DNA of 45,034 nucleotides from a virus: UHGV virus genome UHGV-0114729, one strand, 5' to 3'. The translations under genes were made by a program, and so were the position numbers. Below the pieces are notes generated by a model that saw only the letters and a list, made by a program, of their open reading frames with translations, was not told the DNA's origin and made no database searches. Below are positions 1 through 23,953 of the stretch, piece after piece. Every line of letters starts with the position of its first letter. The first letter of the stretch is position 1.

Positions 1-49
1 CACATTAAAGTACACAATATTTGTGCCCTTCTCTGTTTCTTTCCCGTTA

Positions 50-598
50 TCAGCTAGCTGGAAACTTTTTATACAGAGTTGAGAGCCCTACTCCATACGT
101 TTTTGATACGCTTTGTCGTGATTCACCGGTTGCCATCCGCTCCCCCATTTCCCGCCATTGCTCATCCGTGAACTTAGGCCTGCGACCACCAACTCGCCAT
201 TTTGCCCTGGCTACGGCCAGCCCTGCTAAGGTACGTTCGCTATTAAGATCAGATTCATATTGTGCTGCGGAAAGGATGTTACGAAAGTTATAGCGGCCGC
301 TGGCTGTTTTGAGATCCACGCCATCGGTAATACTGCGGAAGTTGATACCCTTTTCCTGTAACTGCTGGAACATCAACAGCGCATGCAGAACGTTGCGGCC
401 TATCCTGTCCAGCTTCCACACCACCAGTGTATCGCCCGCATTCAGAGTCCGCAGAAGCTTTTTGAGCGCTGGCCGGTTCGCTACCGTCCCGCTCATTTTT
501 TCTTCAAAAACCTGTTCACATCCTGCGCATTCCAGAGCGCCTCTCTGTAACGCTGTATTCTGGTCATTTGTTGATACCCGGATATATCCAATTTGCAC
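50..598 (-). CDS. Serine DNA invertase, Gin/Pin/Cin/Hin family
   Basis: 182-aa ORF; N-terminal MQIGYIRVSTNDQ with the catalytic serine and near-collinear similarity to Mu Gin as remembered; lies directly beside an invertible tail-fibre segment. Confidence 0.9.
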   Translation of the reverse strand: MQIGYIRVSTNDQNTALQRGALECAGCEQVFEEKMSGTVANRPALKKLLRTLNAGDTLVVWKLDRIGRNVLHALLMFQQLQEKGINFRSITDGVDLKTASGRYNFRNILSAAQYESDLNSERTLAGLAVARAKWRVGGRRPKFTDEQWREMGERMATGESRQSVSKTYGVGLSTLYKKFPAS

Positions 599-663
599 GA
601 ATTACCGCCTCTCTCTATCAAAAAACGCGTGAGAGTAACGGAGGTGGCTATAAATCGCATTAT

Positions 664-690
664 CACAAACCTCGGTTTGGGAACAGCGGC
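664..690. repeat. Left inverted repeat of invertible segment (gix-like crossover site)
   Basis: CACAAACCTCGGTTTGGGAACAGCGGC recurs in inverted orientation at 2126..2152 with one mismatch; core AAACCTCGGTTT matches the gix core of Gin-family sites. Confidence 0.8.
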
Positions 691-1459
691 CACAAAGACG
701 GTCGGCACGGCGACAGGGAATTTGTTGGAAGTGGGCGCATTTGGTTTGGGCGTCAAGGTGCTGAAAGTGAATTCGGTCACTAACGCTGACAGTTTGGAAA
801 ATTGCTCGTTTGCAGCGGGCATTGGCAGCGACGCTATAAATTTTGCGTCTAATTTTGCCCCGATAATTGTAGCGGCGCGCGATGGTGGTGGGGATGGTAC
901 CGGACAGATCTCTCAGATCCAGAGCGATGACGCGCTGCTTGCGTTTAGATATCGAGGCGGCAATGTCTGGTCTCCGTGGCGTTATGTATATCATTCCGCA
1001 AATACAACAAAAACAAGCGATGGCACGTTAAAAGCTGCGTCGCCTGTAATTAAAATTTTTCACGACGGCTCTGCGGAAACTAACGATGAGTCAGAAGGTG
1101 TAACAGTCTCCAGATTGTGTGTTGGGCAGTACTTGATTGAAGGGTGTGTAGGAATGAACTCCGACGCGGCGTGGGGCGGGATTGATGGCGGGTTTGACAT
1201 TCCCCGAGATCGGAACGGACAGGCGCTAATCTGGCTGGATTACGAAGTGAATGCCGACGGATCAATCCTCGTCAAAACATATCACCGCACGTATCCCGCC
1301 GCTCCTGCATTTGCGCGTAACGAGATAGATGGGCTGGCAGCCGGCGACCCGGTCGACATTCCCGCCGACCAGTTCGTTTCTGTGCGCGTTGAAATGCCCG
1401 CTGATAGCATATGGAATCAGCGGCAATCAATTATTCTGGCTGATCAAGAGCCTGAGTGA
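664..1459 (+). CDS. Silent alternative tail-fibre C-terminal cassette (promoterless; expressed only after inversion)
   Basis: Plus-strand ORF 593..1459 shares the TNLGLGTAAT junction peptide in frame with the left repeat; the part upstream of the repeat overlaps the invertase start region and is not a credible start. Confidence 0.6.
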
Positions 1460-2646
1460 CTTGCTCTTTGGTTATTTTGCAGTTGTGCTTGCAGGTCTGA
1501 AATTTGTTGTTGTAGAGCCTGAACACAGCCGAGGAGATCCATTACTATCGGGTTGTTGTCCACGGACGGGCGATCCCGATATTCCTCACTAATTTTATTC
1601 CCGGCCTCATCATACACCTCCGTGCCGGGAATTGGCTCTGGATTATGTTTGATATACTGCGGGGCAATTATTTCTGCGTCTTCCGCAATAACCCCAAAAC
1701 GTACTCGCTCTTGTTCGTCGTCACGGTAAATAAAATTAACAAGCTCAAGCGACAGCACTCTGTTTAGGGCGGTGGCCGCGTCCGCTAGCGCAATATTTTT
1801 CTTGTAATCCCTGCCAGACGTTCCCTGTAATGCAATCGTTCCCGTTGACGTCGGGAAGTTGATCATTACCTGTCCGGTTTTGTCCCAACCAGTGCCTATT
1901 CTTTTCACTAAATACACTGATACGAAATCATTACTCTCCGAATACGACGTCTCGAGCAACACAGTTTTACCAACAGTTGAATCGGGTGCCGAGGTGATTT
2001 CAAGAGTCATATCCGGGTACGACTGGCCTGAAATCCTTAATTTTGGCAGGGTCTGCTCCTGACTAAAGGTATTTTTTTCGCTCAGTAACGGGATTGCGCT
2101 ACCTGATGTGCCTGTGTTTACTGTCGCCGCTGTTCCTAAACCGAGGTTTGTGCGGGCCTCTGCTGCTGTTTTGCCACCGGTGCCGCCCTGAGCGATACTA
2201 AGCGCTGTAGTTAACCCGGTCAGGCTCGTAATGTCCTTATTTGCCCCTTTCTTCGCTAGCGATTTCTGACCAGGAACGGTCACAGCCACACCGTTAATCG
2301 TAATTGTCACGTCCCCTGTGCCGTTCATTACGTCAGCGAATCCGCTCATATTGCGCTGGTACAGAGTGAACGTCTCGGCAATATCTTGCGCCAGCCCATC
2401 AACGCTCAGACTATCACTCAGCAGAATTGAATATTTCGTACCGGCTGGAATTGCTGGGCTGGCAGCAGGCGTTACAGTGAGACTCGTAGCGCTGTTAATT
2501 GCAGTAATCTGAAATACCTGTGCCGGATTTGTCAGTGCAATAACAGTGCAGCCGTTCCGAATTAATGAACCCGCAGCAGTAAAATTAGTTCCGGTGCCGG
2601 TCAGAGTATTACCGCTGACAGCGATAGTGCCGGTTGTATAGATCAT
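1444..2646 (-). CDS. Tail fibre protein: constant N-terminal part plus currently expressed variable C-terminal cassette with intramolecular chaperone (peptidase S74-like) domain
   Basis: ORF 1444..2664; likely start is the ATG at 2646 (MIYTTGT) preceded by GGAG; C-terminal SGRDYKKNIALAD...RFGVIAEDAEIIAPQ resembles the auto-cleaving chaperone of endosialidase-type fibres. Confidence 0.75.
   Translation of the reverse strand: MIYTTGTIAVSGNTLTGTGTNFTAAGSLIRNGCTVIALTNPAQVFQITAINSATSLTVTPAASPAIPAGTKYSILLSDSLSVDGLAQDIAETFTLYQRNMSGFADVMNGTGDVTITINGVAVTVPGQKSLAKKGANKDITSLTGLTTALSIAQGGTGGKTAAEARTNLGLGTAATVNTGTSGSAIPLLSEKNTFSQEQTLPKLRISGQSYPDMTLEITSAPDSTVGKTVLLETSYSESNDFVSVYLVKRIGTGWDKTGQVMINFPTSTGTIALQGTSGRDYKKNIALADAATALNRVLSLELVNFIYRDDEQERVRFGVIAEDAEIIAPQYIKHNPEPIPGTEVYDEAGNKISEEYRDRPSVDNNPIVMDLLGCVQALQQQISDLQAQLQNNQRASHSGS
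2126..2152. repeat. Right inverted repeat of invertible segment (gix-like crossover site)
   Basis: Reverse complement of 664..690 (26/27 identical); lies in frame inside the tail-fibre ORF at the conserved TNLGLGTAAT peptide. Confidence 0.8.
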
Positions 2647-2660
2647 TTTATTTTCTCCAG

Positions 2661-2690
2661 GCAATAAAAAAACCCCGCCGGAGCGAGGTT
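2661..2690 (-). terminator. Rho-independent terminator after the lipoprotein gene
   Basis: Minus-strand hairpin CCTCGC-TCCG-GCGGGG followed by TTTTTTTATT. Confidence 0.6.
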
Positions 2691-2709
2691 TATGTTTAAG
2701 CGTAGTGGG

Positions 2710-2943
2710 TTATTTGCAGGTTGTTTCGGTAAATGTATTCGCACTTACCCAGCGCCAGCTGAAAGGATATCCAGCCCGGTACTGCGTCTGGTTGTTTTGT
2801 TTACGCACACCGTAAATCTGAACCGTAGTTTCCTGACCGCCAACGATTGCAGTGCCGCTGCAAACTGGTTCCTGTTTCTCAATTACGCCAGCGCATCCTG
2901 TAAGCATGACAGCGCCTGCCATGCAGATAATCAGTTTTCTCAT
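2710..2943 (-). CDS. Small lipoprotein (moron; possible Cor-like superinfection-exclusion protein)
   Basis: 77 aa; signal peptide plus lipobox LTGC; own promoter-like region upstream and own terminator downstream; sits between tail-tip and tail-fibre genes. Function is inferred from position only. Confidence 0.6.
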   Translation of the reverse strand: MRKLIICMAGAVMLTGCAGVIEKQEPVCSGTAIVGGQETTVQIYGVRKQNNQTQYRAGYPFSWRWVSANTFTETTCK

Positions 2944-2994
2944 TTTGATAGTATCCAGAGGAATTCAGTATCTTAGACGATACCAATACAATTC

Positions 2995-3054
2995 TGGTGG
3001 GTATAATTGATTGGATAGATCAATATTATGTTATTGATCGCTAAAAACGATCAA
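2995..3054 (-). promoter_or_regulatory. Candidate promoter/operator of the lipoprotein gene with two 8-bp palindromes and three GATC sites
   Basis: GATCAATA-N6-TATTGATC and ATTGATCG-N7-CGATCAAT; minus-strand TTGATC-N18-CATAAT sigma70-like elements. Confidence 0.4.
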
Positions 3055-3729
3055 TCAATCATAGGCCGCTGTATTTATGGCGGTTAATGAAATGCCAGTA
3101 TTCGTTCCCCCTCCAGGTGAACCTGCCCCAGTGGAGGTCCCCCCTGCGTTTATCCTCGTATTGGCCCCGTCAAACCTGCATGAAGAATAAGCATTTATCG
3201 TGTAGATAGTCGGAGGCTTGGTTGAATTATTCACAATGATGGTCTGACCCAACTGAGCAGGTGCAACGGCCCATGACCCGCTCAGCGTCTGGTCAATATT
3301 TATCCCGCCGTTTGCACCAGGCGTGCCAACCGTCTGCAGGTCTGATAGCACACGGGACTCATTAGTTAACACAAGCTTTCCGCTCGCATCCCATATTGCC
3401 AAACCCCATTTCGGTAATATCTGCGGGAATATGGCAAAAACGTACGCCGTTAAAGTGAAACTTTGGTTGTAGGGATTAACACCAGCAACATACACATTAC
3501 CGCCGTTCCTGTAAGACATAACCGGAGTGGGCTGTGCTGTATTGGTGGTTTTGATAAAAACCATCACTGGGTAATCAGCGTTTAAAGCGATATTTTGAGC
3601 AACCTGCTGAGAACTGCCATTCGCGGATGAATTGAAGGTATACTTCCCGTAAAGACAGAAAGGCGTTGATTGTGGCGTTACAAAGGGATTCCCGTTATCC
3701 ATTAATATCATCGCGCCAAATTCGGCCAT
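3055..3729 (-). CDS. Hypothetical tail-associated protein (downstream of J)
   Basis: 224-aa ORF whose start overlaps the stop of the preceding ORF; Gly/Asn/Thr-rich; shares a WDASG motif with the upstream 100-aa ORF. Confidence 0.5.
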   Translation of the reverse strand: MAEFGAMILMDNGNPFVTPQSTPFCLYGKYTFNSSANGSSQQVAQNIALNADYPVMVFIKTTNTAQPTPVMSYRNGGNVYVAGVNPYNQSFTLTAYVFAIFPQILPKWGLAIWDASGKLVLTNESRVLSDLQTVGTPGANGGINIDQTLSGSWAVAPAQLGQTIIVNNSTKPPTIYTINAYSSCRFDGANTRINAGGTSTGAGSPGGGTNTGISLTAINTAAYD

Positions 3730-4031
3730 TATGCTTTCTCCATGAAAACGACCACCTCACATTTAGAGGCCGGGTAATTACCCAGGCCCACAGAAGAGGC
3801 TGCGGTTACGGTTATTGTGTTCCCTGACGCGACAATGCTCCTCCCTACGCTGTTACCTCCTTCATCAAGTGAGAGCGCAAAACCGACCTTCATTCCTGAG
3901 GGTACAGTGAAAGACCAGCTGCCGGAGTTTTGTCCGGCGGCAAGTTGTATACGTCCAACAACGGAAACGGGCTTGATTCCGTAGTTGTTGGGGTTTCCCG
4001 AAGCATCCCAGGTCTGTATTCCATAAGCCAT
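3729..4031 (-). CDS. Hypothetical tail-associated protein (downstream of J)
   Basis: 100-aa ORF overlapping the J stop; translationally coupled. Confidence 0.5.
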   Translation of the reverse strand: MAYGIQTWDASGNPNNYGIKPVSVVGRIQLAAGQNSGSWSFTVPSGMKVGFALSLDEGGNSVGRSIVASGNTITVTAASSVGLGNYPASKCEVVVFMEKA

Positions 4032-4032
4032 A

Positions 4033-7000
4033 TCAGAACACCCCCGTTAATCGGCCAACCTGCACTCTCAGAACGTTGTTGCCATCCTTGACGCTGATTG
4101 TCTGGTTGGTCTGCTTCATGGCTCCCTCCCCAGCTGTCGAACCGTAGTTCTCAAACGTCCCGGACTTATCCAGTTTCCAGCCAACAGAGCCGGCAACATA
4201 ATTGTTCGACTGGATGTAATTGCCAATTTTTGCATTGCTTATGGTCCCGTCGCCAATGACTGTATCCCTGATAATGGCCTGGCCATTCTGAATAACGAAT
4301 GGCAGCGTGACCGCACCACCGGCCTGAGTCATAACAGCAAAGCGGTTAGCCAGGAACAGCACCTGCGACTGCATACCTGCTGGCGTATTTTCGACTCCGA
4401 TACCCATTCCGGCAGCGTATTGCCGTCCGTTCGAGTCGATAGCGACTTTAATACTGTACATCGCATTCAGATTTCCGCTGATATCTGCAACCGCCCGTGC
4501 GTTCTGTTCAATTACTGTCGTCTGCCCATTAACTGACACTGTCAGCGAGTTAATCCGCGTTGCTGACGCCTGCGTGAAATCCGCAAGAGTTTTTGCAAAA
4601 TCAGTCGTATTTGCAGTACCACCTCCTGCACTTGAATCCAGCGTTTTGAGTGACTCAGCCACAGCCAGGCTTGCATCAGCCATCACGTTATCGACACGTT
4701 CGAGCCCTGCTTTATTGTCGCCGTACTGCACACTCATTCGCTGCGACTGATTCACCTGCGCTAACGTCTGCTGAATTACTGCAATCGCGTTATTCTGAAT
4801 GCCTCCTTTAATGACGCCCACATTACTGCTCTGATCTGCGATTTCTGCTGAGATTTCGTCAAAACGTAACGCTGTGGCGCTGTCCAAATCCGTGACCACT
4901 TGATCCAACTCGCTGATTTCTGCGGCATTGCGAGTACTGGCTTGTTCCGCCTCATCTGCTTTATCGCTGGCAGCTTTAGTAGCAGCAGAAAGCTCGTCGA
5001 GTCGCAGCGCTGTAGCTGATTCTGTATCTGTCACAACCTGCTCAAGCGCTGTGATTTTCGCTGCATTTTGTGCGCCAACCTTACCCGCCGCGTCCGCTTT
5101 AGAGTCGGCAGTCTTAGTAGCAGCATTGAGTTCATTAAGACGCGTCGCGACTGCTTGAGACTCGTCAGACATAGCTTGACGCACTTCAATGATATCAGCT
5201 GCGTTGTGCTCTGTAGTAGCTTCAAGGCGCAGTACATCAGCAACACGGGCTTCGGTCTCGTTGGCTATGGCTTCCTGTGTGCGCTCGATCCCGGCCTTGT
5301 TGTCCAGGTACTGAACCGTCATGGTGTTGCGCTGGCTAACCTGAGCTAACGTGTTGTTAATCAGAGCGATGGCATTACTCTGAATGCCGCCCGCAGCGCT
5401 GGCAGTAGCAGCGCTAAGCTCATCAAATCGTGAAGCGGCCGCAGAGGTGCTATCTGTAACAACTTGGGTAAGTGATGTGATATCCGCGCTGTTCTGTGCG
5501 CCAACCTTACCCGCCGCGTCCGTAGCAGCAGTAAGCTGATCGACAGCAGTTGCGCGGGCTTGAGTTTCATCAGCAAGTGCTTGTCGAACCTCAGTGATGC
5601 CCGCCGCGTTATCCTTCGTCTTAGCTTCGAGACGGGTAACATCGGTCACGCGAGCTTCAGTTTCTGTCGCTACAACTTCCCGTAGTTGCTCGAATTGCGC
5701 CGTATTAGCGCCGTTTTGGGCGGTCTGACGCAATACGACATCAGTAATCGCGAGAGAATTGGCAATAATAGCTTCAGCGGTCTGTTTGTTAGATGAAACC
5801 GCCGCGGCAAGACTATCTGCATTTTCACGAATCGCTGCTGCCAGATTTTCAGTACTGGATTTCAAATCCTCTGCAGTTTGTTTCCCGTCAATAATTGCAG
5901 CTGCCAGCGCGTCGGCATTTTCCCGGACCGCATCAGTCAGTTCGGCAATATTTTTGGTATCCTCATCTACAGTGGCGATCAGGTTTTTGAAAACCTCTGT
6001 TTCCTGAATCTCTTTGAATATTGCATCCGTAATTTCTGAAACATCGGTGCTCGCCTGCCCGCGCACCCAGTCGGTATACCCCGATTCGTTACCGGTCCGG
6101 TCAACAAGTTGCGCGCGGTACCAGAAAATCTGCCCAGCCTTAAGGCCCATCTGCTGATATTTGCGCTGCGGGTAAGGCACATCGGCCAGCAGCATTGCAT
6201 CGTCCTCGGTACCGGTCAGGCTATACTGAATTTCCGTCTTCAGCGTGTCTTCGGTATTCGCCGGGAATCCCCAGTTCAGCTCGATACCGAATACCACGTT
6301 TTCAGAAGCGATGAAGCCAACCGGCTTCGGTGGGTTTCCCACTTTACCCGTCAACGTTTTCTCTTCTGAATAGCCCCACCCAGATGAAATTTCGGCGGCA
6401 TTGATGGCACGCACGCGAACCAGGTAGCGTCCTGCATAAATCCCCGGAACATCGAATGACGTGGTGGAGCTGCGCGGCACATTCACCCAGTTCCCGTCAT
6501 TGCGACGCCACTGTGCCTCATACGCGATAGCATTTTTCGCCTGGTCCCAGCTGACGCGCATGGTCTCAACGCTGATATTCTGCTGAACGACAGAAAACGA
6601 ACTGATCGCGATATTAGCTGGCGGGGACTGATTACCGGGCGGAATTACACTTATTGGCCGCTGGTCGATAATGGCACCGGTATCGATACGCGCATATTTA
6701 TCCGGATCGTGCAAAGCGCCAGCAATCGAATACGTTCCGTCATTATTATCCGTAACGCTGATAACGCGATATTGCTGCGCGTAAAGCTCTTCAGACTCGA
6801 CAATCCACACCGATTCCACTGCAGGTGTTTCGCTGTATGCCGTTGTCACAGTGACGGCCCGCCCGTTTACGCTCTGTATCGTCCTGCTCTGCGATGCGCC
6901 GGACGGAAGGTTAACCATCAGACGGCTTCCGGGAGCGGCTGCCGAATCACGATCAAGCGTGATAACGCGACCGTTAACCGCACTGATGCGCCCTCCCATC

Positions 7001-8490
7001 ACTTTTCCGGAAAGCAGCTCATCGGCAACCGCGATGATATAACCAGGCTGTGGGATCTTACCGTCAAGACCAACATCGAACGACACGATGCGATCCTTGT
7101 TATTGGTCAGGATACCCCAACGTCCTTTGCGGTTTGCCTCTGACTGCCGGGTACAACCAATGGCTGTCATTTCGAGCTGATTTGTGCCAAAGCGAGCAAC
7201 GAGATCCTGCTCAAATACAGGCTCCATCGCATCCGCGTAGGCATTACCCGGATCGGACCAGGAAACCAGTGCCGTGGTATAGCGGGTTTTGGTGGTGCTG
7301 CCCGAATAGGTAAAGCGCCCATTAACCACGTTTGCACGCGTGTAGCTGTAATCCACATCGCGGGGCATATCCGCCAGCGCAACGATTTGATCGCCACCCC
7401 AGTACGTCATGCCCCGGAATATCGCCGCAAAATCACGTAACACGGTATAGGCGTCATTCCTCTCCTGCACGTACACGTTACAGGTATAGCGAGGCTCAGT
7501 GCCGCTACCGCCTTTACCATCAGGAACCGGCTGATCGCAATATTGCGCGACCTGATAAAGCGTCCATTTATCAATATTGGCCGCCGTCAGGCGATTGCCC
7601 AGCCCAAAGCGGTCGCTCACCACCAGATCGTAAAAAATCCAGGCTGGATTATCCGTCCACGCCCACTTAAACGCCCCTGTCCATGTGCCGCTGTAGGTGC
7701 GGGTCTCCGGGTCATACGTATCCGGAACGCGGATTACACGCCCTCGCGGTTCGCAGGATATTTGCGGGATAGAGCCGTTAAACTGGCTTGAGTCGAATTC
7801 GATGTACAGCAGCGCGGTATTTGGATAACGCAGTTTGGCGTCAATAACCTCTGTGTAGCTCTGCAGCGTCATCGTGTCGCCAATTTTCGCGCTGTTGGCA
7901 TCCGCCGTAAGCTTACGCAGGCGCACCGTCCATGTACTGCCTGCCTGTGGTAAATCGATACGATGGCTGCGTTCGTAGCCGGAAGTTGTCTTGCCGGTTA
8001 CGCTGGTATTAAGTACCGTCTGCCAGGTGCCGCCATCGGTCTGCAGATCAATAGCGTAGTTAATTGAATAGCCAACCAGATCGCCATCATCCTCCTGTTT
8101 AAAAAGCGATGGCCACTTGAGGCGCAGGCGAACGGCTGACAGTTGCGTGTTGGTAAAGGTATGTGTCCAGCCGGTGGTGCTTGACACTTCGGTGCCCACG
8201 CTGATTTCATTTTCTGTGCCGGGGATACCCTGAATATATTTTTGTGCCTGAGTCCCCGGACGAAATTCCCACGCCACGCCACTGAAGTTTTGCGATCCGT
8301 CTGCATTCTCCAGTGGCGTGCCATCGAGATAGATATCCTTCGCCGTCAACTGCCCTGCAAATTCGCCCTCTCCCAGTGCAACAAGAATTTTGGCTTTCGC
8401 TACGGACTGGAGATCGTCTGGTTGTTCAGTCGGGGTGCGTGAACTGGAGCTGCCGCCCTTGCGGCCTCTAATCGGAGTAGATGTAGCCAT
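4033..8490 (-). CDS. J: Host specificity protein J (central tail fibre / tail tip)
   Basis: 1485 aa; follows I as in lambda; J-like N-terminal two-thirds; carries an internal tandem duplication in the C-terminal third. Confidence 0.85.
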   Translation of the reverse strand: MATSTPIRGRKGGSSSSRTPTEQPDDLQSVAKAKILVALGEGEFAGQLTAKDIYLDGTPLENADGSQNFSGVAWEFRPGTQAQKYIQGIPGTENEISVGTEVSSTTGWTHTFTNTQLSAVRLRLKWPSLFKQEDDGDLVGYSINYAIDLQTDGGTWQTVLNTSVTGKTTSGYERSHRIDLPQAGSTWTVRLRKLTADANSAKIGDTMTLQSYTEVIDAKLRYPNTALLYIEFDSSQFNGSIPQISCEPRGRVIRVPDTYDPETRTYSGTWTGAFKWAWTDNPAWIFYDLVVSDRFGLGNRLTAANIDKWTLYQVAQYCDQPVPDGKGGSGTEPRYTCNVYVQERNDAYTVLRDFAAIFRGMTYWGGDQIVALADMPRDVDYSYTRANVVNGRFTYSGSTTKTRYTTALVSWSDPGNAYADAMEPVFEQDLVARFGTNQLEMTAIGCTRQSEANRKGRWGILTNNKDRIVSFDVGLDGKIPQPGYIIAVADELLSGKVMGGRISAVNGRVITLDRDSAAAPGSRLMVNLPSGASQSRTIQSVNGRAVTVTTAYSETPAVESVWIVESEELYAQQYRVISVTDNNDGTYSIAGALHDPDKYARIDTGAIIDQRPISVIPPGNQSPPANIAISSFSVVQQNISVETMRVSWDQAKNAIAYEAQWRRNDGNWVNVPRSSTTSFDVPGIYAGRYLVRVRAINAAEISSGWGYSEEKTLTGKVGNPPKPVGFIASENVVFGIELNWGFPANTEDTLKTEIQYSLTGTEDDAMLLADVPYPQRKYQQMGLKAGQIFWYRAQLVDRTGNESGYTDWVRGQASTDVSEITDAIFKEIQETEVFKNLIATVDEDTKNIAELTDAVRENADALAAAIIDGKQTAEDLKSSTENLAAAIRENADSLAAAVSSNKQTAEAIIANSLAITDVVLRQTAQNGANTAQFEQLREVVATETEARVTDVTRLEAKTKDNAAGITEVRQALADETQARATAVDQLTAATDAAGKVGAQNSADITSLTQVVTDSTSAAASRFDELSAATASAAGGIQSNAIALINNTLAQVSQRNTMTVQYLDNKAGIERTQEAIANETEARVADVLRLEATTEHNAADIIEVRQAMSDESQAVATRLNELNAATKTADSKADAAGKVGAQNAAKITALEQVVTDTESATALRLDELSAATKAASDKADEAEQASTRNAAEISELDQVVTDLDSATALRFDEISAEIADQSSNVGVIKGGIQNNAIAVIQQTLAQVNQSQRMSVQYGDNKAGLERVDNVMADASLAVAESLKTLDSSAGGGTANTTDFAKTLADFTQASATRINSLTVSVNGQTTVIEQNARAVADISGNLNAMYSIKVAIDSNGRQYAAGMGIGVENTPAGMQSQVLFLANRFAVMTQAGGAVTLPFVIQNGQAIIRDTVIGDGTISNAKIGNYIQSNNYVAGSVGWKLDKSGTFENYGSTAGEGAMKQTNQTISVKDGNNVLRVQVGRLTGVF

Positions 8491-8542
8491 ATTGCGCCCA
8501 TAAAAAAGGCCACCCTGAGGTGGCCTGAAAGGAGGTTTTTAT

Positions 8543-9133
8543 TTATTGCTGGTCTTCGACATAAATCCCGGCAGAAATAATCGCACCGCCGATTTGCCGA
8601 CGACCATAAAGAAGCGGTACCGGATAGCCCTGCGCGGCGGTGTTGGTGACTCCACCGAACGCGTATGAGGCGCGGTTATCTGAACTCTGTTTGCTGGCCA
8701 GCCCCGCTGGTTGAGGGGAAAGCATCTGAACAACCCCGCCAATCATCATTGCGGCACCGAATTTGTATAAGAATGGTGATGCCGCAGCCCAGGGTGTGAA
8801 ATTAAGCACCGCCCCAACGGCAACCAGAACTGCACCAAGTATTGTCTGGAGTAATCCGGCCTTTTTGCTCCCGATAATCACCGGGACAATGCGAATGACA
8901 TCGCCGGTGACCGGGTAACCCAGGTCATCAACACCAATATTCTTTTTCCCTTTGAATACTGAATAAGTGAGACCACGGCGTTGGCTGGAAATCATAAACT
9001 GCTCAAAGCCCGGTATAGTCTTTGCCAGCGCAACACTCGCTTCGTTCACGCGGGAAATCAGGCGATGGTGAACTTTACCGAATGTTTTCCCGAGCACGCC
9101 GCCAAGCTCAATGCGGGTCATTACTTCCTGCAT
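8543..9133 (-). CDS. I: Tail assembly protein I
   Basis: 196 aa; lambda gpI-like Gly-rich hydrophobic C-terminal half; position between K and J. Confidence 0.8.
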   Translation of the reverse strand: MQEVMTRIELGGVLGKTFGKVHHRLISRVNEASVALAKTIPGFEQFMISSQRRGLTYSVFKGKKNIGVDDLGYPVTGDVIRIVPVIIGSKKAGLLQTILGAVLVAVGAVLNFTPWAAASPFLYKFGAAMMIGGVVQMLSPQPAGLASKQSSDNRASYAFGGVTNTAAQGYPVPLLYGRRQIGGAIISAGIYVEDQQ

Positions 9134-9852
9134 GTTTCACCTGCCATTACATCTTTATAGCGAACGATCTTCATTGTGCGCTCCTGCCAGTATCCGCCAT
9201 AAGGAACACGTTGACTCAGATGCCCGTAAAGATGGTGCAGCAGCATGTTACCCTCCAGTAAAATCCCGGCATGATTCCACTTATCGGCCTGCACCTGCAT
9301 GATGACGAGGTCCCCTTCCTGAGGCGGACCATCAAACTCCCTGAATCCGCACTCGTACCAGCACTCCTGATAGAAATTGTCCGGGTAGTCGTTTTCCCAC
9401 CAGGGATAATCCACCCGGTAATCGTGGAGCTCGATACAGTGGGTCTGCCGGAAATAGCTCATTACCAGACCCCAGCAATCGAAGTGGCCAAGCACGAACG
9501 GACGCTCCAGCAATGGCAGCTCCCCGCGTGGCTGAATGGTACGTAAATCCCCCTCTGGCCAGCTCACAATATGCCAGGGCAGCAGCGTTGCATCACACTG
9601 CGCCTTATCCAGCTCGCTGGCCTGCGTCGTCGCATCAGGATGGCTGTGAACAATGGCCACCACCGTCCCCCAGTCTTCTGCCGCTGCGTAATCTTCGGGG
9701 GACAGGTGAAAATGTTCAGTCGGCTCTGCTGCGAGATTACGACAGGGAAAATAGCGCTCAACCCGGCTTTTCTGTGCCACCACGCCGCAGCACTCTCGCG
9801 GATATTCCGCTGCAGCGTGTGCCATGATGGCATCAATGGTTTTCTGGCGCAT
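9121..9852 (-). CDS. K: Tail assembly protein K (NlpC/P60 plus JAB/MPN)
   Basis: Near-identical to lambda gpK as remembered (YPRECCGVV, HSHPD); likely start MRQKTID at 9852. Confidence 0.9.
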   Translation of the reverse strand: MRQKTIDAIMAHAAAEYPRECCGVVAQKSRVERYFPCRNLAAEPTEHFHLSPEDYAAAEDWGTVVAIVHSHPDATTQASELDKAQCDATLLPWHIVSWPEGDLRTIQPRGELPLLERPFVLGHFDCWGLVMSYFRQTHCIELHDYRVDYPWWENDYPDNFYQECWYECGFREFDGPPQEGDLVIMQVQADKWNHAGILLEGNMLLHHLYGHLSQRVPYGGYWQERTMKIVRYKDVMAGETCRK

Positions 9853-9853
9853 A

Positions 9854-10609
9854 TCAGCTCCTGATAAGAGATGTACCGGGGAAACCGCCAAACGGCAGCT
9901 CGTTGCTGTCTCCGTGCCGGAGCTTGCAGGCCGTCAGCGTGCCGTTGCAGACATCCAGCGATGGATCGTCAACCGGATTATTGTTTTTGTCGAAATAGCG
10001 CGTTCCGGCATAGTCGCAGCCGTCGCCGGTCCGGTACTTGTTCCGGATGCACCAGCTGCATAACGAATGCAGCTGCCGCGTGGGTATCATCTGGCCCTGT
10101 AAATCCATCGGACTGGAAAGCGTAAATTCAACAGATTCATCCGTCTCGGTGCTTCTGGCATCGATATAAAAGACCTTCAGCTTTTCCTGTGACGGGTCTG
10201 CAGTGGGATTGCCCTGCGGAAAATTTCTGGCGTCCAGATACTGTGCCAGCGTGTCGTGGATACTCACTTTCGCCTGCAGCAGATCGTCATACGCCAGACA
10301 GAGCGCTGAGATCGAGCTGTCCAGGTTCGCCACACTCAGTTTTGGCTGTGGACTGGTACCGTCCGTAGTCGCTTCAATACCCTCAACCTGACACGGCCAG
10401 GCTTTATACTCCTCCCCCTGCCACCAGATGGACTTCGCCGGAAGTTTATTCTCATCCCCGCCTGCAGCCTCAATCTCTTCCGGGGTATGCGCGATATTAT
10501 GTGCGTGGAAGCGGAGTACATCTGACATACCGAACGCTGTGCCATCGACAGAAAAAAGCCGGACTTCATTGCCCGGCTCGAGTTTTTGATAATCAGCATT
10601 AAGACTCAT
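9854..10609 (-). CDS. L: Minor tail protein L
   Basis: 251 aa; cysteine cluster CDYAG...CNGTLTACKLRHGD typical of gpL; synteny. Confidence 0.85.
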   Translation of the reverse strand: MSLNADYQKLEPGNEVRLFSVDGTAFGMSDVLRFHAHNIAHTPEEIEAAGGDENKLPAKSIWWQGEEYKAWPCQVEGIEATTDGTSPQPKLSVANLDSSISALCLAYDDLLQAKVSIHDTLAQYLDARNFPQGNPTADPSQEKLKVFYIDARSTETDESVEFTLSSPMDLQGQMIPTRQLHSLCSWCIRNKYRTGDGCDYAGTRYFDKNNNPVDDPSLDVCNGTLTACKLRHGDSNELPFGGFPGTSLIRS

Positions 10610-10953
10610 GGTGCAAATGCCTGTTCAAACGTTGCGGTTACGGTTATCACTTTTACGTTTTTAACCACCTTTTTGAGCGTGTCAGCCTCGACACGCCACA
10701 GCGCGGTATCGCCGAAAGGCGGTGTGAAAATAAACGACTTCACTTTATGCCGCCGAAGGAAAGCGTGAATTTCATTCGCTGTAGTCGGATCCCCTGAAAA
10801 GGAATATTCATAGGTACGAATCTCATCATTCAGGCCGGAGCCGCTCACCTGTGCGTACCCGTCGCCGAACTGGACCTTCCTGACTGTGTCTTTGCTTCCC
10901 TCGGTGGGCTGGCTGGAAACCTTAATGCCCCAGGGGAATGTTTCTATCGTCAT
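10606..10953 (-). CDS. M: Minor tail protein M
   Basis: 115 aa; RKVQFGDGY motif as in lambda gpM; synteny. Confidence 0.85.
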   Translation of the reverse strand: MTIETFPWGIKVSSQPTEGSKDTVRKVQFGDGYAQVSGSGLNDEIRTYEYSFSGDPTTANEIHAFLRRHKVKSFIFTPPFGDTALWRVEADTLKKVVKNVKVITVTATFEQAFAP

Positions 10954-10958
10954 AACTG

Positions 10959-13475
10959 TTACCTGCGATTGGTCGCATTCCAGATAAGCCCACCGGGCTG
11001 GATTGCCCTGGCGATACCATCGTTGACAGATTTGTTAATCACCTGCTGATACGCCTTACCCAGCCTGTCTCCGTCGTTTTGCTGCTGTGCGTTACCGGAA
11101 GCATTCTCGACCGTCACCGGGGCATATACACTGACACCGAAAGGTGCTGCAGCCGGGCCTGTACCACCGCCCCCGACATACCCACCCGTGGCATACCCTT
11201 TCATCATCCGGTAAAGATTGCCGACGCCGATCCGGCTGGTAGCCTCTTTGGTGAAAACAAATTCACCACGGTGAACGACACCTGCAGGTTCATATTTCCC
11301 GCCTGAACCGGTATAACCGCCACCTGCAAATCCCAGCGCGGTTGTCGCTGAATCCACCAGGCCTACCATCGCCTGTTTCAGCAGGATCTGTGTCAGCATG
11401 GAGAGCGTGGAGCGGGTGAAGTCAGCCCAGTCAGCCTTTCCGCGCGTCAGCATGTCAGCCATATTTTGCCCGATGCCATCAAACGCACTGGTGGCAGCCG
11501 ACTTCATCTGGCCATAAGCATCTGAAGCGGAATCAACATAATCTGCCCATGCGGATTTGGCTCCGGACTGCCAGTCGTCCCGCAGCTTATCCTGCTCGGC
11601 GTAATACGCCTGCAGCGCCTGCAGCTCATTCTGATAACCAGCATCGTTCTCCGAACCACCACCATTTTTCCAGCCCTGAAGAAGCTGGGCCTCTTCATTG
11701 CGACGTTGTGCTGCACGACTGCTCATACCAGCACTTTCCGCAAGGGCTCGGGTTTTCTCGCCGATCTGCGTGACGTATTTTTGGGACGTATCCTGCAGGC
11801 GATTAAGCCGCTCCTGCGCCACTATCTGATCGCCGAGCTTCGCATTCAGCTCCGCACGGGAAAGCACCTCACTTTTACTGGCCAGCAGGGATTTTTCCTC
11901 AGCAGAAAGCGTTCGGGTCTTCGCGGCCTCTTCCAGAACCGTAAAGCGGGACTGCTGACGCCACAGCTCCTGACGCTGCTGGCTGATGGTGTCATTGATG
12001 CTCTTATGCTCCTGCAGGGTGCGCAGCTGTGTCTGTAGCTCCAGCGTCTGGGCACTGGCCGTATCGGTGGCACGGGCACCTGCGGGGGTTCTGATTGCCG
12101 GGGTCTTCTTCGGCTTTTTAAGGGTGTCTTCGTACTCTTTTTTCGCGGCAGCCAGGTTGATGTTGTAGTCAGCCTGGAGGATCCGCCCCTCTTTCAGCGC
12201 CTTGTTGAGCTCGCTCTGCCTGGCCGTGTATTTCTCAAGGGCAGTTTGGGTTTTGGCATAGTTGGCCTGAGCCTGCGCGGCATATTTCTGACGATCGGAC
12301 TCTGCGACCGCTTCACGGGAAGCATTCTCTTCGTTCGCTTTGGCAATACCAGCCTGCTGCTGCGCCATATCCAGTGCCAGTCTGGCCGTTTCACGATCAT
12401 TCCAGAACCGGGCGCGGGCCTCATCATTCACATAATGATCGCCTTTACGCAGATTCCAGATTTCATCAGCCTTTTTAAACGCGGCCTGGGCTTTTGCCAC
12501 CATCTCCTGGGCGGTGTCAGGTCTGCCAATATCAAGTGCAGCATCCCACATCGACTTGAAGGCACGCTTCAGGGAATCCGCTGAAGACTCAATCGTCCCC
12601 ATATTGTCGCGGATGGCCTTGGTCTGATCGTTGAATCCGGCAGTAGCAGCCTGATTAGCCGCCTGCAGTGCGCCAGCCTCATCACCGGCACGCTGCAGCT
12701 GTGCCACATGGGCAATCTGTTCGGCCGTAACATTGTGGAACTGCTGAGCCATCGCGATCAGGCCTGATGTCGGGTCAGTAGTGAGCTTGCCGTATGCGGC
12801 TGCGACTTTTTCCACCGGCACGCCGGAGGCATCAGTAAATCGCGCCACCGCCTGGCTCATTTCATCAAAGCGCGAACTCGCGCCCACCCCCGCGTTGATA
12901 AGCTCGCTCAGGGCTTCGCTGGTCTGATTGAACGTCAGCCCCGCTGCCTGGCCGTTTCGTGCCAGCGCCAACATACGATCGGCAGTCAATCCGGCCGTGT
13001 TCCCCGACAGTACCAGCGTTTTGTTGAAGTCAGATAGTGTGGATGAGCCCTGGTACCAGGCATAGAACAGCGCACCCGTTGCGGCGGACAGTGCACCGAT
13101 GCCGACCATCAACGGTGAGATCGTACCCAGTAAGGCCCGGAATGTTGGTATTATCCCGCCAAAGGAGTCCTTAACCTGACCGCCCTGCTGAAGCAGAATC
13201 AGCCATGGGTTCTGCCCGCCCGCTAGCTGCGTAGCTATATCGGTAAACTGCGCCGGAAGCATACGCATTGCTGCGTTATACTGGCCTATTGAAATACCCG
13301 CCTTGCGCGCGGCGTTCTCCTGGCGGCTAAAGGACTGCTGGATCCGTAGCGCTTCGTCGTTCGCCGCGCTGCCAGTCTGCTTTAATTCTTTTTTGACGTA
13401 GTTAAGCTGCTCGTTAAATTTCGTCGAGTTAACGTCAAGGTTAACGACCAGATCACCCACTGCCGTCTGGGCCAT
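10959..13475 (-). CDS. H: Tail tape measure protein H
   Basis: 838 aa, Ala/Gln-rich coiled-coil protein between G/T and M. Confidence 0.9.
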   Translation of the reverse strand: MAQTAVGDLVVNLDVNSTKFNEQLNYVKKELKQTGSAANDEALRIQQSFSRQENAARKAGISIGQYNAAMRMLPAQFTDIATQLAGGQNPWLILLQQGGQVKDSFGGIIPTFRALLGTISPLMVGIGALSAATGALFYAWYQGSSTLSDFNKTLVLSGNTAGLTADRMLALARNGQAAGLTFNQTSEALSELINAGVGASSRFDEMSQAVARFTDASGVPVEKVAAAYGKLTTDPTSGLIAMAQQFHNVTAEQIAHVAQLQRAGDEAGALQAANQAATAGFNDQTKAIRDNMGTIESSADSLKRAFKSMWDAALDIGRPDTAQEMVAKAQAAFKKADEIWNLRKGDHYVNDEARARFWNDRETARLALDMAQQQAGIAKANEENASREAVAESDRQKYAAQAQANYAKTQTALEKYTARQSELNKALKEGRILQADYNINLAAAKKEYEDTLKKPKKTPAIRTPAGARATDTASAQTLELQTQLRTLQEHKSINDTISQQRQELWRQQSRFTVLEEAAKTRTLSAEEKSLLASKSEVLSRAELNAKLGDQIVAQERLNRLQDTSQKYVTQIGEKTRALAESAGMSSRAAQRRNEEAQLLQGWKNGGGSENDAGYQNELQALQAYYAEQDKLRDDWQSGAKSAWADYVDSASDAYGQMKSAATSAFDGIGQNMADMLTRGKADWADFTRSTLSMLTQILLKQAMVGLVDSATTALGFAGGGYTGSGGKYEPAGVVHRGEFVFTKEATSRIGVGNLYRMMKGYATGGYVGGGGTGPAAAPFGVSVYAPVTVENASGNAQQQNDGDRLGKAYQQVINKSVNDGIARAIQPGGLIWNATNRR

Positions 13476-13806
13476 AGCGCACGCCTCCTGAAATACCTGC
13501 AGCCTTCGCCATCAGCGTATCGTCATCCGGCTCATCAACGTCGATGCTTTCCGATACAGGGGAAAGGATGCTGAAACTGTCCGGTGTTAATTCCGGATCA
13601 GCAAAAAACAGGGTTGAGATGGTGTAGAGCAAACCGGAGAAATGAGCATCCAGCTGCGCATCATGAAAGTAATTGTCCTGGTAGAAGATTTTCCAGTCGC
13701 CGTATTCCGTTGAGGACATGCCAGCAAGCATGGCACGCCAGTCCGGGCGACCGAACTCACGCGCCAGTTTCATGGCAAACTTCAGCTCACTGGCGAGGGC
13801 TTTTCC
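13453..13806 (-). CDS. T: T portion of the G-T frameshift fusion (tail assembly chaperone GT)
   Basis: ORF 13453..13773 is in the -1 frame relative to G and is open back to a GGAAAAG heptamer at 13800..13806 just before the G stop. Confidence 0.75.
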   Translation of the reverse strand, partial: GKALASELKFAMKLAREFGRPDWRAMLAGMSSTEYGDWKIFYQDNYFHDAQLDAHFSGLLYTISTLFFADPELTPDSFSILSPVSESIDVDEPDDDTLMAKAAGISGGVRYGPDGSG

Positions 13807-14204
13807 GCAGTAACAGGTTCAGCGGGTTCATTACGTTCTTCACCGGGCTCAGCCTGGTCATCAGTGACCGGCGCAATCATCCCGGACAGGAGTTTCACCT
13901 TATATTCGGCTTCGGCAACAAGTTCGGTCGGCCATGTCTGCATGACCTCATCCTGAATCTGCTCCACTTCCGCCGCCGCGTTTTCTCCCTGCGATCCTTT
14001 AAGCGCGTGGCCATGCCAGAGTGACATTGCCACCAGATATGCTCCACTCTTCACGGTAAGGGTAATGGCAGCCTGAAAATCACCAGCTTCAACCGCCTCA
14101 AGTTGTTTCAGGTATTCGAGGTATTCAATACGCTGCAGCGCCGACAGCTGGAACAATGTGACGCTGCTGCCGTTACTTTCAAGCAGCTCGCTCTTTAGAA
14201 ACAT
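13782..14204 (-). CDS. G: Tail assembly chaperone G
   Basis: 140 aa, acidic C-terminus, directly after V; the downstream ORF is in the -1 frame. Confidence 0.85.
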   Translation of the reverse strand: MFLKSELLESNGSSVTLFQLSALQRIEYLEYLKQLEAVEAGDFQAAITLTVKSGAYLVAMSLWHGHALKGSQGENAAAEVEQIQDEVMQTWPTELVAEAEYKVKLLSGMIAPVTDDQAEPGEERNEPAEPVTAEKPSPVS

Positions 14205-14240
14205 AATTACTCCGGGGGAACGGGGCTTTCGCCCCGGTTA

Positions 14241-14978
14241 TCAGGAAACAGTGACTTTGCAGATCGCCACAAAGTTACCGTCATTGCTCATTACGATGAT
14301 CTCGACGGTGCCTGCCGCCACGCCGGTAACAGTCAGGGTATTGCCGCTGACGGTGACCGTTGCTTTTGACGGATCAGAACTGGCTACGCGGAAAGACTTA
14401 TCTGAAGCACTTGCTGGCAGGACAGAAACAACCAGTTGCGTCGTGGCCGCGACAGCCACAGCCGCCGTGGATTTATCCAGGCTGATCCCCGTAACGGCAA
14501 TCGGCGCGGTACCACTGTCTTCGGCCAGCGATGGTTTGCCATTGTTGGTGATTTTTGCCGTGCGGGTCATGACCTCTTTAGACGAGATGGTCTTGCCGAG
14601 ACTGCTCACCCAGCCCTTAAAGACATCGACAACACCATTCGGATATTTGATTTTATACCCCTTCACGGTGCCTTCATCGAACCAGTTCACCAGGTCCTGC
14701 TGACCGGAATCCTCCGGCATCCATGCGAGCGTCAGGTTTGTTTCACCGGCTGATTTCTGCCCCTGCATCGTTGATGTCCAGTCGGCATTCTCATCATCGA
14801 TGTAGGTGTCATCTTCCGATTCAGCTGTCAGTTCTCCGGGCTGCAGGTCTTTAATCTTTGCCAGGCGCAGCCAGTCAACGTCTGAAAGCGGATTGGCGTA
14901 TGGATCACCAGTTCCGGTGTAAACCCAGAGGGTGGTACCAGCACCTTTTGTTGGTGCCAGCGGGTTTGGTGTGGCCAT
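14241..14978 (-). CDS. V: Major tail protein V with C-terminal Ig-like domain
   Basis: 245 aa; lambda gpV-like N-terminal domain and Big_2-like C-terminus. Confidence 0.9.
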
Positions 14979-14985
14979 AGGGTCC

Positions 14986-15384
14986 TCACATGTCGTAAGT
15001 AATGGAATATTTCAGGTCGGCAGAACTCCACAGCGCCATATCGTCATCGCGCTGGTAGTCATAGCCCTGCTGAACCATTGTGGTGATAAGAGATTCAAGC
15101 CCCGGAACCTCTGCGAGAACCGGATACACTCTCGTCTCCATCCAGTCATCCAGATCAGAATCAGGTACCTGAGCCTCAAGAAAGACTTCGATATGCAGAA
15201 TGGCCTGCCAGCTATCGGCGTCCAGTTCTTCCCCTGTGTATTCCGCATCTGTCAGGTAGACGGCAACAGCGGGAAAATCACCCTCTTCGAGCACTGCAGG
15301 TCTGCCGTCAAAATAAATGACATCAGTACCAATCGCGCTTTCCAGCGCGTCAATAATCACCTTGCGAATATCGCTGTGTTTCAT
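14986..15384 (-). CDS. U: Tail terminator protein U
   Basis: 132 aa, near-identical to lambda gpU as remembered ([24 protein letters not shown]). Confidence 0.95.
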
Positions 15385-15935
15385 CGTGTCAGAATTAACC
15401 TGAGTTGGTTGGTAAGGGATGCCCGGAGCTCTTTGGGCATATCTGACTCCATGAGCTTCGGCAGTTCTTCTTTAAATGCCGTAGTTAATGGAGCTGCCAG
15501 CGGGATGCTGACCACTTCAATGGGGTAACGAGGTTTTGAAGTCCGCCTCATGACATGCCAGCGACCATTTTTAAGTTGCTGGATAAAGCCGCCCGGAAAA
15601 CGAAATGGCCCTATGCGCAGAACGCTGTTGGCCCCTTTCTTGTCCCGTTTTCTGCGGGAAAGTCGCACGCTTGCGGTACCGAGTTTAATGGCCGGTAAAT
15701 TTCCCCGGTTTACCCGGATAAGTGCACGAGGTCTATTGACCGTCGCACGCTTCACCCTGGCGCGTTGCTTTACCAGTTTTCGCGGTACGCGCGTATCTTT
15801 TGATACGACTGCCACGCTGCGGCTGACGGCCCGGTTTGCCACGCGGTTAACGGCCTGCGCCGATGCCCGCGGAACAGCCGTTTTGCTGATGCTGTTAAGG
15901 TTTTCTATGGCCTGTTCAAGGCCTTTTATGGACAT
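15381..15935 (-). CDS. Z: Tail completion protein Z
   Basis: 184 aa, lambda gpZ-like (IKGLEQA, GAFIQQLKNGRWHVM). Confidence 0.9.
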   Translation of the reverse strand: MSIKGLEQAIENLNSISKTAVPRASAQAVNRVANRAVSRSVAVVSKDTRVPRKLVKQRARVKRATVNRPRALIRVNRGNLPAIKLGTASVRLSRRKRDKKGANSVLRIGPFRFPGGFIQQLKNGRWHVMRRTSKPRYPIEVVSIPLAAPLTTAFKEELPKLMESDMPKELRASLTNQLRLILTR

Positions 15936-15944
15936 ATGCGCTCC

Positions 15945-16298
15945 TTAACGGCGACGCGAAGATGCAGGTGGAGAGCCGTTACCCAGACAGATATGACAGG
16001 AGCCACAGTCATCCGGACCAATACGTTCAACCCAGAATTGCCGACCGTTAATCGTCAGCGTGTCCATACGCTGCAGCTGCCTGACAGTGGCGGTTTCCAC
16101 AAACAGGGTCGGGCTGGTTCCTTCAACACGAATCCCGGCACCGGCATATCCGATATTTTCTGGATCATCGAATACACCGACCAGGGTGGCACCTGACAAA
16201 GCGCCTGACATCACCTTTGCCTCTGTGCCCATCACACCACGGATAGCGCTATCAGCTCGCGACATGGCCTCGTCAAAGAGATTATCGAAATCAGCCAT
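15945..16298 (-). CDS. FII: Head-tail joining protein FII
   Basis: 117 aa, MADFDNLFD and GVFDDPENI as in lambda FII. Confidence 0.95.
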   Translation of the reverse strand: MADFDNLFDEAMSRADSAIRGVMGTEAKVMSGALSGATLVGVFDDPENIGYAGAGIRVEGTSPTLFVETATVRQLQRMDTLTINGRQFWVERIGPDDCGSCHICLGNGSPPASSRRR

Positions 16299-16308
16299 GT
16301 GGCCCCCT

Positions 16309-16734
16309 TCAGACTTCGAAAGCCAGCCCCTTTGCGATCAAGTCGTCGGCATCCTGTTCAGATACGCGGATAATCACACCAGGCTCTACGATAGATACCG
16401 GCTCGTTACGCGTGGCATGCAGAGCGTCAATATGCAGGGTGGCCAGCGTTTCTACTGATACCAGGTCACCCGTTGTGGCCGATTCCGTTTTTACTTTTGC
16501 CACGTTAGCAACATTGTTGTCGGTGCTGTCGGTGCTGTCGGTGCTGTCGGTGCTGTCGGAAGCATTCTGCACGCCGTTTTCACCGTCAACTGACCCGGCA
16601 TTGCCATCCAGTTCCTCTTCAAGCTCAGCAATACGCATCGTCAGTTCCTGAATGGTGCCGCTGGTACTGACCTCGCGGTTAAGCTGGGTCCCAAGTTCAT
16701 TCAGGCGGGCGACCAGCTTTTCTTTTTCTGTCAT
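16309..16734 (-). CDS. FI: DNA packaging protein FI
   Basis: Lambda FI-like ends; likely start MTEKEK at 16734 with GGAG at -9; central linker encoded by a 9-bp tandem repeat. Confidence 0.85.
   Translation of the reverse strand: MTEKEKLVARLNELGTQLNREVSTSGTIQELTMRIAELEEELDGNAGSVDGENGVQNASDSTDSTDSTDSTDNNVANVAKVKTESATTGDLVSVETLATLHIDALHATRNEPVSIVEPGVIIRVSEQDADDLIAKGLAFEV
16519..16554. repeat. Four perfect 9-bp tandem repeats (GTCGGTGCT) encoding (STD)n in the FI linker
   Basis: Read directly from the sequence. Confidence 0.9.
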
Positions 16735-16779
16735 GGGAAATACTCCAGAAAGGTGGCCCGACAGGGCCACTGGGGGAAG

Positions 16780-17805: not shown

Positions 17806-17819
17806 AGATTTTTCCCGTA

Positions 17820-17846
17820 AAAAAAGCCGCGCAAGCGGCTTTTATG
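17820..17846 (-). terminator. Terminator-like hairpin between D and E
   Basis: Minus-strand AAAGCCGC-TTGC-GCGGCTTT followed by TTTTTTAC. Confidence 0.5.
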
Positions 17847-17872
17847 AATGATGATGGTTGTAGAAATGCGGA

Positions 17873-18205: not shown

Positions 18206-18214
18206 GATAGCCTC

Positions 18215-23776: not shown

Positions 23777-23953
23777 AGCTCACTCCATACACAAAAACAG
23801 AGAAAGGAAACGCCCTCTGGCTATTTAGCCGTTTTTAAGGCTTATCATTTCCTTTCTTTTCAGGGGGTGTTTACAGTTAAAACAATGAATTAGCGAGAAG
23901 AAGAACGGAAACGGCAAATGCCTGAAAATTTTCATAAATAGCGAGAATCTGCG

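Follow-up and report, generated by a model that had tools for sequence, protein, structure and literature searches.

At one end of the viral genome UHGV-0114729 (45,034 nucleotides, all of which were analyzed and are called the window here), a gene for a serine DNA invertase stands beside two convergent open reading frames (ORFs) that encode alternative ends of a tail fiber. Judged from its gene content, the element is a phi80-like E. coli prophage. A first-pass annotation of this DNA had proposed that the invertase inverts the DNA between two repeats and thereby exchanges the C-terminus of the fiber. Our analysis agrees with that proposal in its essentials. It is highly probable that the region is a Din-type, probably Fis-assisted, site-specific inversion system that puts one or the other of two unrelated tips on a constant side-fiber stem, and that this switch is working, or was working very recently.

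The inverted repeat at the center of the proposal is present as it was described. The 27-nt sequence CACAAACCTCGGTTTGGGAACAGCGGC occupies 664-690, and its reverse complement recurs at 2126-2152 with a single mismatch (G679 versus A). A repeat finder extends the pair to 31 nt at 94% identity (664-694 and 2122-2152). Only two copies exist across the 45 kb even when three mismatches are allowed, and none of 100 dinucleotide-preserving shuffles gave a match; the repeat is far beyond chance.

These repeats overlap two 26-bp sites, each an imperfect dyad around a 2-bp core. The distal site is inverted with respect to the proximal one; its reverse complement reads CCCGCACAAACC-TC-GGTTTAGGAACA, and the core dinucleotides agree (TC on the other strand). 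Inverted 26-bp sites with identical cores, here TC/GA, are the arrangement of the Din family. The sequence AAACCTCGGTTT, said at first to match the gix crossover core, is indeed the core of Mu gixL, taken at the G-segment boundary that the Mu record annotates. Alignment of the proximal site with gixL gives agreement at 18 of 26 positions, including the 12-bp center and the TC core, and the same 12-bp center is common to both sites in the window and to both gixL and gixR of Mu. The invertase gene starts 74 bp from the proximal site.

No third site that would permit multiple inversions was found in the window. One-mismatch matches to the core occur at 5984 and 21802, lack half-sites, and are at the level expected by chance (about 1.3 in 45 kb). 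A shufflon or other multiple-inversion system, such as Rci or Min of p15B, was ruled out because there are only two full sites and the recombinase is of the serine type. The match at 5984 belongs to a pseudo-site (5984-6009) within the gene for the central tail fiber J; it reads TTTTTGAAAACCTCTGTTTCCTGAAT and has a gix/hix-like left half, a TC core and a poor right half.

The adjacent invertase gene is intact. Its product carries the Pfam domains Resolvase (E=1.3e-37) and HTH_7 (E=1.2e-09), both over the Pfam cut-offs, and falls in phrog_125, 'DNA invertase' (E=2.6e-74). It matches the Gin structure 3uj3 over residues 1-181 with E=1.3e-62, versus 5e-21 for gamma-delta resolvase. Identity is 55% to Mu Gin, 60% to e14 PinE, 55% to P7 Cin, 85% to phi80 PinL and 97% to the enzyme of phage mEpX1, and Ser9 and 75 invariant columns are common to all of these proteins. 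It is presumably the enzyme that catalyzes the inversion.

The 5′ end of the invertase gene may also contribute a regulatory element. The stretch that corresponds to the recombinational enhancer of P7 cin holds two G..C 15-mers at the spacing seen in Mu gin, GTATCAACAAATGAC at 563-577 and GCGCAGGATGTGAAC at 514-528, which, by analogy with the Hin and Gin enhancers, are putative Fis sites. This stretch is 80% identical to Mu gin, versus 51-56% in the remaining gene. Identical synonymous codons make up 0.65 of it (23 codons, which also encode the active site) versus 0.26-0.39 elsewhere. This pattern is consistent with a Fis-dependent enhancer. The 91-nt stretch from the proximal site to the invertase start folds no better than shuffled controls (z = 0.07).

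One metagenome contig (L013, PPYF01188158.1, 3338-5203) carries a recombinant invertase beside the same invertible segment. The first 28 amino acids of this enzyme are those of the window's invertase and the remainder is Pin/Cin-like, giving 59% identity overall; the mosaic breakpoint lies just past the enhancer-equivalent stretch. A dinI-like ORF follows the recombinant gene, and after it comes a second, PinL-like invertase gene.

The two repeat copies fall in frame at the same peptide, TNLGLGTAAT, in convergent ORFs (593..1459 on the plus strand and 2664/2646..1444 on the minus strand), which bears out another part of the initial description. The two ORFs share 16 nt, 1444-1459. The tail-fiber gene runs from 2646 to 1444 on the minus strand, with GGAG upstream of an ATG at 2646, and the same ATG is the start in the RefSeq annotation of the flipped allele. 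Exon B has no credible translation start of its own. Thus a constant N-terminus lies outside the segment, and alternative C-termini lie inside it in opposite orientation, both in frame across the site.

The first 209 residues of the fiber in the window, which we call the A form, match phrog_1591 and residues 1-392 match phrog_1980, both of them tail-fiber families; the full 400-amino-acid protein matches phrog_1980 end to end. In the constant part, residues 3-107 match the N-terminal domain of the phage depolymerase fibers 7vyv and 7lzj. This domain is the part that anchors such fibers to the virion.

The two tips share no sequence relationship, and each matches a different solved fiber. In exon A, residues 202-390 (the last ~190) match the C-terminus of DT57C LtfA (8hqz_d, residues 884-1070, E=1.5e-52), and a Peptidase_S74 intramolecular chaperone domain is found at residues 279-330 (Pfam PF13884, E=1.2e-07). 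The lateral tail fibers LtfA of DT57C, a T5-like phage, are needed on O-antigen-producing hosts (PMC10713586). Exon B matches the C-terminal 250 residues of a 'putative tail fiber' of phage SU10 (7z47_D, residues 535-785, E=1.2e-66). It also matches positions 198-458 of the 484 in phrog_1591, and the fused B form of 429 amino acids, annotated in E. coli RefSeq as the flipped state, matches this family end to end. The swap had been put at about 230 C-terminal residues, which is right for the expressed form (~233) but too low for the silent one (~262).

The segment leaves no room for the assembly genes (U or tfa) found in the Mu, P1 and e14 segments: no tfa-like family was present among the Pfam and PHROG matches, and the exons fill the segment with a spare length of -8 nt. 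Exon A carries its intramolecular S74 chaperone domain in place of a separate assembly gene.

Features of the invertible tail-fiber region and its neighbors in the window
Feature	Position	Strand or sequence	Basis or remark
Invertible segment, 1,473 bp	672..2144		In-silico flip reproduces public E. coli genomes
Proximal (invertase-side) recombination site, gix-like, 26 bp	660..685	TTATCACAAACC-TC-GGTTTGGGAACA	Crossover dinucleotide 672-673
Distal recombination site in tail-fiber gene	2131..2156	+ strand TGTTCCTAAACC-GA-GGTTTGTGCGGG	Crossover dinucleotide 2143-2144
Serine DNA invertase, Din (Gin/Cin/Pin/Hin) family, 182 aa, GTG start, Ser9	50..598	-	Pfam, PHROG and structure matches
Enhancer-equivalent stretch (gene nt 19-87)	512..580	-	Corresponds to recombinational enhancer annotated in P7 cin, +19..+86
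Constant N-terminal part of side tail fiber, ~167 aa, outside segment	2145..2646	-	PHROG and structure matches
Variable exon A, joined to constant part in window, ~233 aa	1444..2144	-	Tip region, then Peptidase_S74 domain
Variable exon B, silent in window, ~261 aa plus stop	674..1459	+	Phage_tail_C_2 tip, Pfam PF25670, E=1.7e-59
Terminator-like hairpin between cor and tail-fiber gene	2670..2691	-	Terminator annotated there in phi80, mEp237 and HK225
cor, phage exclusion lipoprotein	2710..2943	-	NCBIfam NF047972 equivalog, E=9e-42, over cut-off; phrog_1119

Direct evidence for inversion comes from public genomes. When 672..2144 is reverse-complemented, positions 1..3000 of the window become identical to E. 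coli P27_L1_05.20 (NZ_CP085069.1, 2736139-2739138) at 3000 of 3000 bases. The flipped sequence is found at 100% and full length in 14 complete E. coli genomes (NZ_CP085069.1 and 13 more); the orientation of the window itself was not found in any complete genome. Inversion aside, the late region (1..23996) is 99.95% identical to the prophage of P27_L1_05.20. The early and regulatory region (24000-43300) is a mosaic relative to that prophage, with 26.8-38.7 kb unmatched and only 79-95% identity elsewhere.

The window orientation is recorded outside the complete genomes. A 28-mer made of the proximal flank and core gave no matches in species-representative genomes or IMG/VR. In metagenomes it gave three contigs, two flipped (L012 and L013) and one (L014) in the state of the window at 100%. 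The exact A-form protein is recorded on 21 contigs and the exact B form on 162, and the named sources of both are all E. coli. At least 24 contigs, of several origins, were read as carrying the A form; some of their prophages sit at yciI-tonB and others at a second site close to aspS. Both orientations therefore exist in nature in otherwise identical sequence, and both are common. The predicted swap of the fiber C-terminus thus has its flipped product in finished genomes and both of its fused proteins on record.

The comparison also places the exchange. The mismatch at 679/2137 moves with the segment on inversion and the flanks diverge from 663/2153 outward, so the exchange maps to 664-678, with the predicted core inside. 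The repeats are identical within this 15-bp interval, and sequence alone cannot therefore tell site-specific exchange from homologous recombination by RecA at the 31-bp inverted repeats. We give very little credence to such recombination or to an assembly artifact at the repeat. A repeat of 31 nt with two mismatches is a very poor substrate for RecA. A dedicated invertase lies 74 bp away, the sites have the architecture of gix, and the same site geometry recurs beside related invertases in many genera. As for an artifact, sequencing reads are longer than the repeat, and 14 genomes deposited as complete have the flipped form.

Gene callers have been misled by the arrangement. In the window orientation the silent exon is called as a free-standing protein of 271 amino acids from a GTG at 644 (644-1459, plus strand). 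In the flipped state the silent S74 exon becomes a 242-amino-acid 'tail fiber domain-containing protein', which is recorded on 183 contigs. These calls are almost certainly not independent genes.

We propose the following model for site-specific inversion at this locus. The serine invertase (598..50) would bind the two inverted 26-bp sites, 660-685 and 2131-2156, probably assisted by host Fis bound to the enhancer in the 5′ end of the invertase gene. It would cut at the matching TC/GA dinucleotides, and the 1,473-bp segment would rotate. The constant 167-residue N-terminal part, the presumed tail anchor, would thereby be joined to either tip: the DT57C-LtfA-like tip of exon A, which may fold with its own C-terminal S74 chaperone domain, or the SU10-fiber-like Phage_tail_C_2 tip of exon B. 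A lysogen population would then release two kinds of virion that differ in side-fiber specificity, most likely for surface polysaccharide. The central fiber J would keep the primary receptor, probably FhuA.

Several features of the prophage bear on this division of labor. The late region looks complete, with lambda-like tail genes, and the prophage is integrated beside yciI-tonB. The gene next to the fiber gene is cor, which marks phages of the phi80/N15/HK022 type. The C-terminus of J is 62% identical to that of phi80 J across the last 298 amino acids and near-identical over the last ~130. Cor-bearing phages such as phi80 use FhuA via J. Because the element is phi80-like, with Cor and a phi80-like J C-terminus, the switched fiber is most likely an accessory side fiber that would modulate initial adsorption rather than the primary receptor binder. 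The host-range role that the first-pass annotation gave to the switch is an inference, with indirect evidence in the unrelated sequences and different structural matches of the two tips.

The J gene itself spans 4033-8490 on the minus strand and encodes 1,485 amino acids. J-type genes of the related E. coli prophages L002 and L003 are ~3.5 kb, with clearly shorter products. The extra length holds diverged direct repeats at 4747-5522 (60-119 nt, 70-73% identical, spaced 138-585 nt), which encode an alanine-rich region that looks like a coiled coil.

A terminator-like hairpin separates cor from the fiber gene, which fits expression of the fiber from antiterminated late transcripts, and the fiber is probably expressed from the late operon. 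The switch could instead mainly serve the lysogen, with one fused fiber made in the prophage masking a surface receptor and blocking superinfecting phages. There is a precedent in e14, on whose segment PinQ acts: the inverted e14 fiber, StfE2, was reported to block superinfection from the lysogen side (PMC12529663). In the window the fiber gene adjoins a lysogenic-conversion gene, cor. The hairpin between them argues against expression in the lysogen, however, and given the complete-looking late region a role in the virion is the simpler reading. A switch that mainly serves the lysogen thus seems quite improbable to us, although a lysogen-side function is not exclusive of the virion-based model.

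Phages phi80, mEpX1, mEp237 and HK225 have the same genes in the same position (J, two small genes, cor, the fiber gene, the invertase and attP), the same integration site beside yciI-tonB, and invertases 85-97% identical to that of the window. Records of this group already carry the invertase as pinL or 'DNA invertase', but the switch is not annotated as invertible, and we found no paper describing it. The core of the proximal site is TT in phi80, mEp237 and HK225. Of these three, only mEp237 has a detected distal site, and its core is TC. The related prophage L003 likewise has TT at the proximal site versus TC at the distal one. Only pseudogene fragments lie between pinL and the fiber gene in phi80. 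The silent Phage_tail_C_2 exon of mEpX1 (L005, 4681-5468) is split by a frameshift. Between fiber gene and invertase, a dinI/msgA gene is annotated in mEp237 and HK225, and dinL in phi80. To judge from these sequences, the switches of the published phi80-group phages are probably dead, whereas both sites and both exons are intact in the window.

A number of observations weigh against our model, either in the working of the switch or in its effect. Codon 134 of the invertase (197-199 in the window) encodes Trp, whereas the five relatives in the alignment (Gin, PinE, Cin, mEpX1 and PinL) all have Gly; the position is in the KGRxGGR arm, which stands between the catalytic domain and the helix-turn-helix (HTH). 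This residue could impair the invertase, in which case the flip would be catalyzed in trans by another Pin-type invertase. A promoter scan of the minus strand from the proximal site to the start codon revealed no promoter-like site for the invertase. All 14 complete genomes, 7 of them derivatives of one strain, share one orientation, so either the segment does not flip fast or lysogens are mostly in one state. The evidence for both orientations compares strains and samples, not cells within one culture. Finally, if infection is decided by J and FhuA, the switch may do little to host range.

Two of these points, Trp134 and the uniform orientation of the complete genomes, also favor an alternative in which the switch is decaying or locked. 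The invertase in cis would be inactive, the two orientations in the databases would stem from rare events for which other Pin-type invertases, supplied in trans by the host, were responsible, and the sites would persist mainly as code for the conserved TNLGLG motif. Trans action of Pin invertases is documented (PMC12529663), and close relatives are visibly decayed (the TT proximal cores, the phi80 pseudogene fragments and the frameshift in mEpX1). We nevertheless regard this alternative as unlikely. The sites in the window keep full half-sites and the same cores, and each exon remains an intact ORF with a match to a complete family. The Trp134 allele, found also in E. coli P27_L1_05.20, in W619 and on contig L014 (L012, with the same cassettes, has Gly), occurs in both orientations where the sequence is otherwise the same (L001 has one; the window and L014 have the other). 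A ratio of A to B forms of 21:162 contigs, spread over several prophage backgrounds and two integration sites, is hard to fit to one rare event. A functional or recently functional Din-type switch accounts better for these data.

The assignment to the type of the Mu G, P1 C and e14 P segments holds for the invertase, the sites, the constant part and the alternative exons, but the absence of U or tfa assembly genes from the segment sets this switch apart. The resemblance to Mu is close. Gene order and strand are the same, from constant part to segment to invertase, and the gap between site and invertase is 67 bp in Mu versus 74 bp here. Both invertase genes start with GTG and their products are 55% identical. 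The 26-bp sites have the same 12-bp center and TC/GA core, and in both cases the crossover lies inside the fiber gene and the C-terminus is exchanged. The G segment of Mu, however, is ~3 kb and holds Sv-U and Sv′-U′, with one assembly gene per tip, while the segment in the window consists of two overlapping convergent exons in 1.47 kb. Mu is also a myovirus whose fiber is its primary adsorption organelle, in contrast to the probable accessory side fiber of a siphovirus described here.

The closest characterized invertase, at 60% identity, is PinE of the e14 P segment of E. coli K-12, another lambdoid element. In e14, inversion gives the constant part of stf one or another C-terminus, and cultures hold a mixture of both orientations (PMC4272514). 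The e14 segment differs in holding the assembly genes tfaP and tfaE and in its site core, AA/TT; e14 is a defective remnant, whereas the late region of the prophage in the window looks complete. The C segment of P1 and P7 is likewise a switch of the tail-fiber C-terminus, with an invertase 55% identical to ours and an enhancer annotated at nt 19-86 of P7 cin, corresponding to the conserved stretch in the invertase gene here. There, cin lies on the other side of the segment, cixL overlaps the 3′ end of cin, the core is TT/AA, and the segment of ~4 kb includes U genes.

Tail-fiber inversion by Hin-related invertases is a textbook phenomenon and has been systematically surveyed (PMC4272514, PMC9881135). 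The first-pass annotation had placed such a switch on a lambda-like tail. The phage is indeed a phi80-like siphophage, but this placement is not new, since e14 is lambdoid (PMC4272514) and the phi80-group invertase is already annotated. No concept is changed, because Mu G, P1 C and e14 P already revealed both the mechanism and its purpose. The switch is an ordinary addition to a long-known class, and its minimal, chaperone-free layout is common in Enterobacterales.

The extent of that layout can be seen in species-representative genomes, in which a search with the invertase retrieved 44 loci. As a rule, a site lies ~80 bp upstream of the invertase and its partner 1.4-3.4 kb off. In about 10 of the 44 loci (from Citrobacter, Enterobacter, Klebsiella, Cedecea and Pseudocitrobacter), the segment consists wholly of two convergent exons joined at (A)RTNLGLG, the partner site is 1.4-2.3 kb off, and at most 61 nt are spare. 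Other loci have 0.7-2.5 kb spare, enough for assembly genes. The invertases of the chaperone-free two-exon loci are only 57-63% identical to that of the window, and their exons are different. We found no paper describing such loci as a class. We therefore raise, tentatively and as something we ourselves doubt somewhat, the idea that the window exemplifies a distinct sub-class of Din switch, not previously described as far as we found: a ~1.5-kb segment made of only two convergent, abutting or overlapping exons, without chaperone genes, with its site in (A)RTNLGLG, on short side fibers of lambdoid siphophages across Enterobacterales. If this is true, the shared motif-plus-site might be a universal joint through which phages exchange tips.

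The locus has more immediate uses. It is a clean, sequence-verified tail-fiber inversion switch on a phi80-like siphophage whose published relatives keep only relics. Recognizing it would correct two errors of annotation: the silent exon, whichever it is, is routinely miscalled as a free-standing protein, and the two fused forms are entered as proteins with no relation to each other. Those who engineer phage host range may also find the chaperone-free two-exon layout of interest.

The module as a whole (the same fiber, segment and invertase) is found also in prophages at another site, beside an isochorismatase-family gene and aspS (L061, L063 and L066, from Logan contigs). These prophages have a different J, of 1478-1482 amino acids, and a DUF8377 gene where cor would be. 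The presence of the same module at a second integration site with a different J indicates that it moves between prophage backgrounds.

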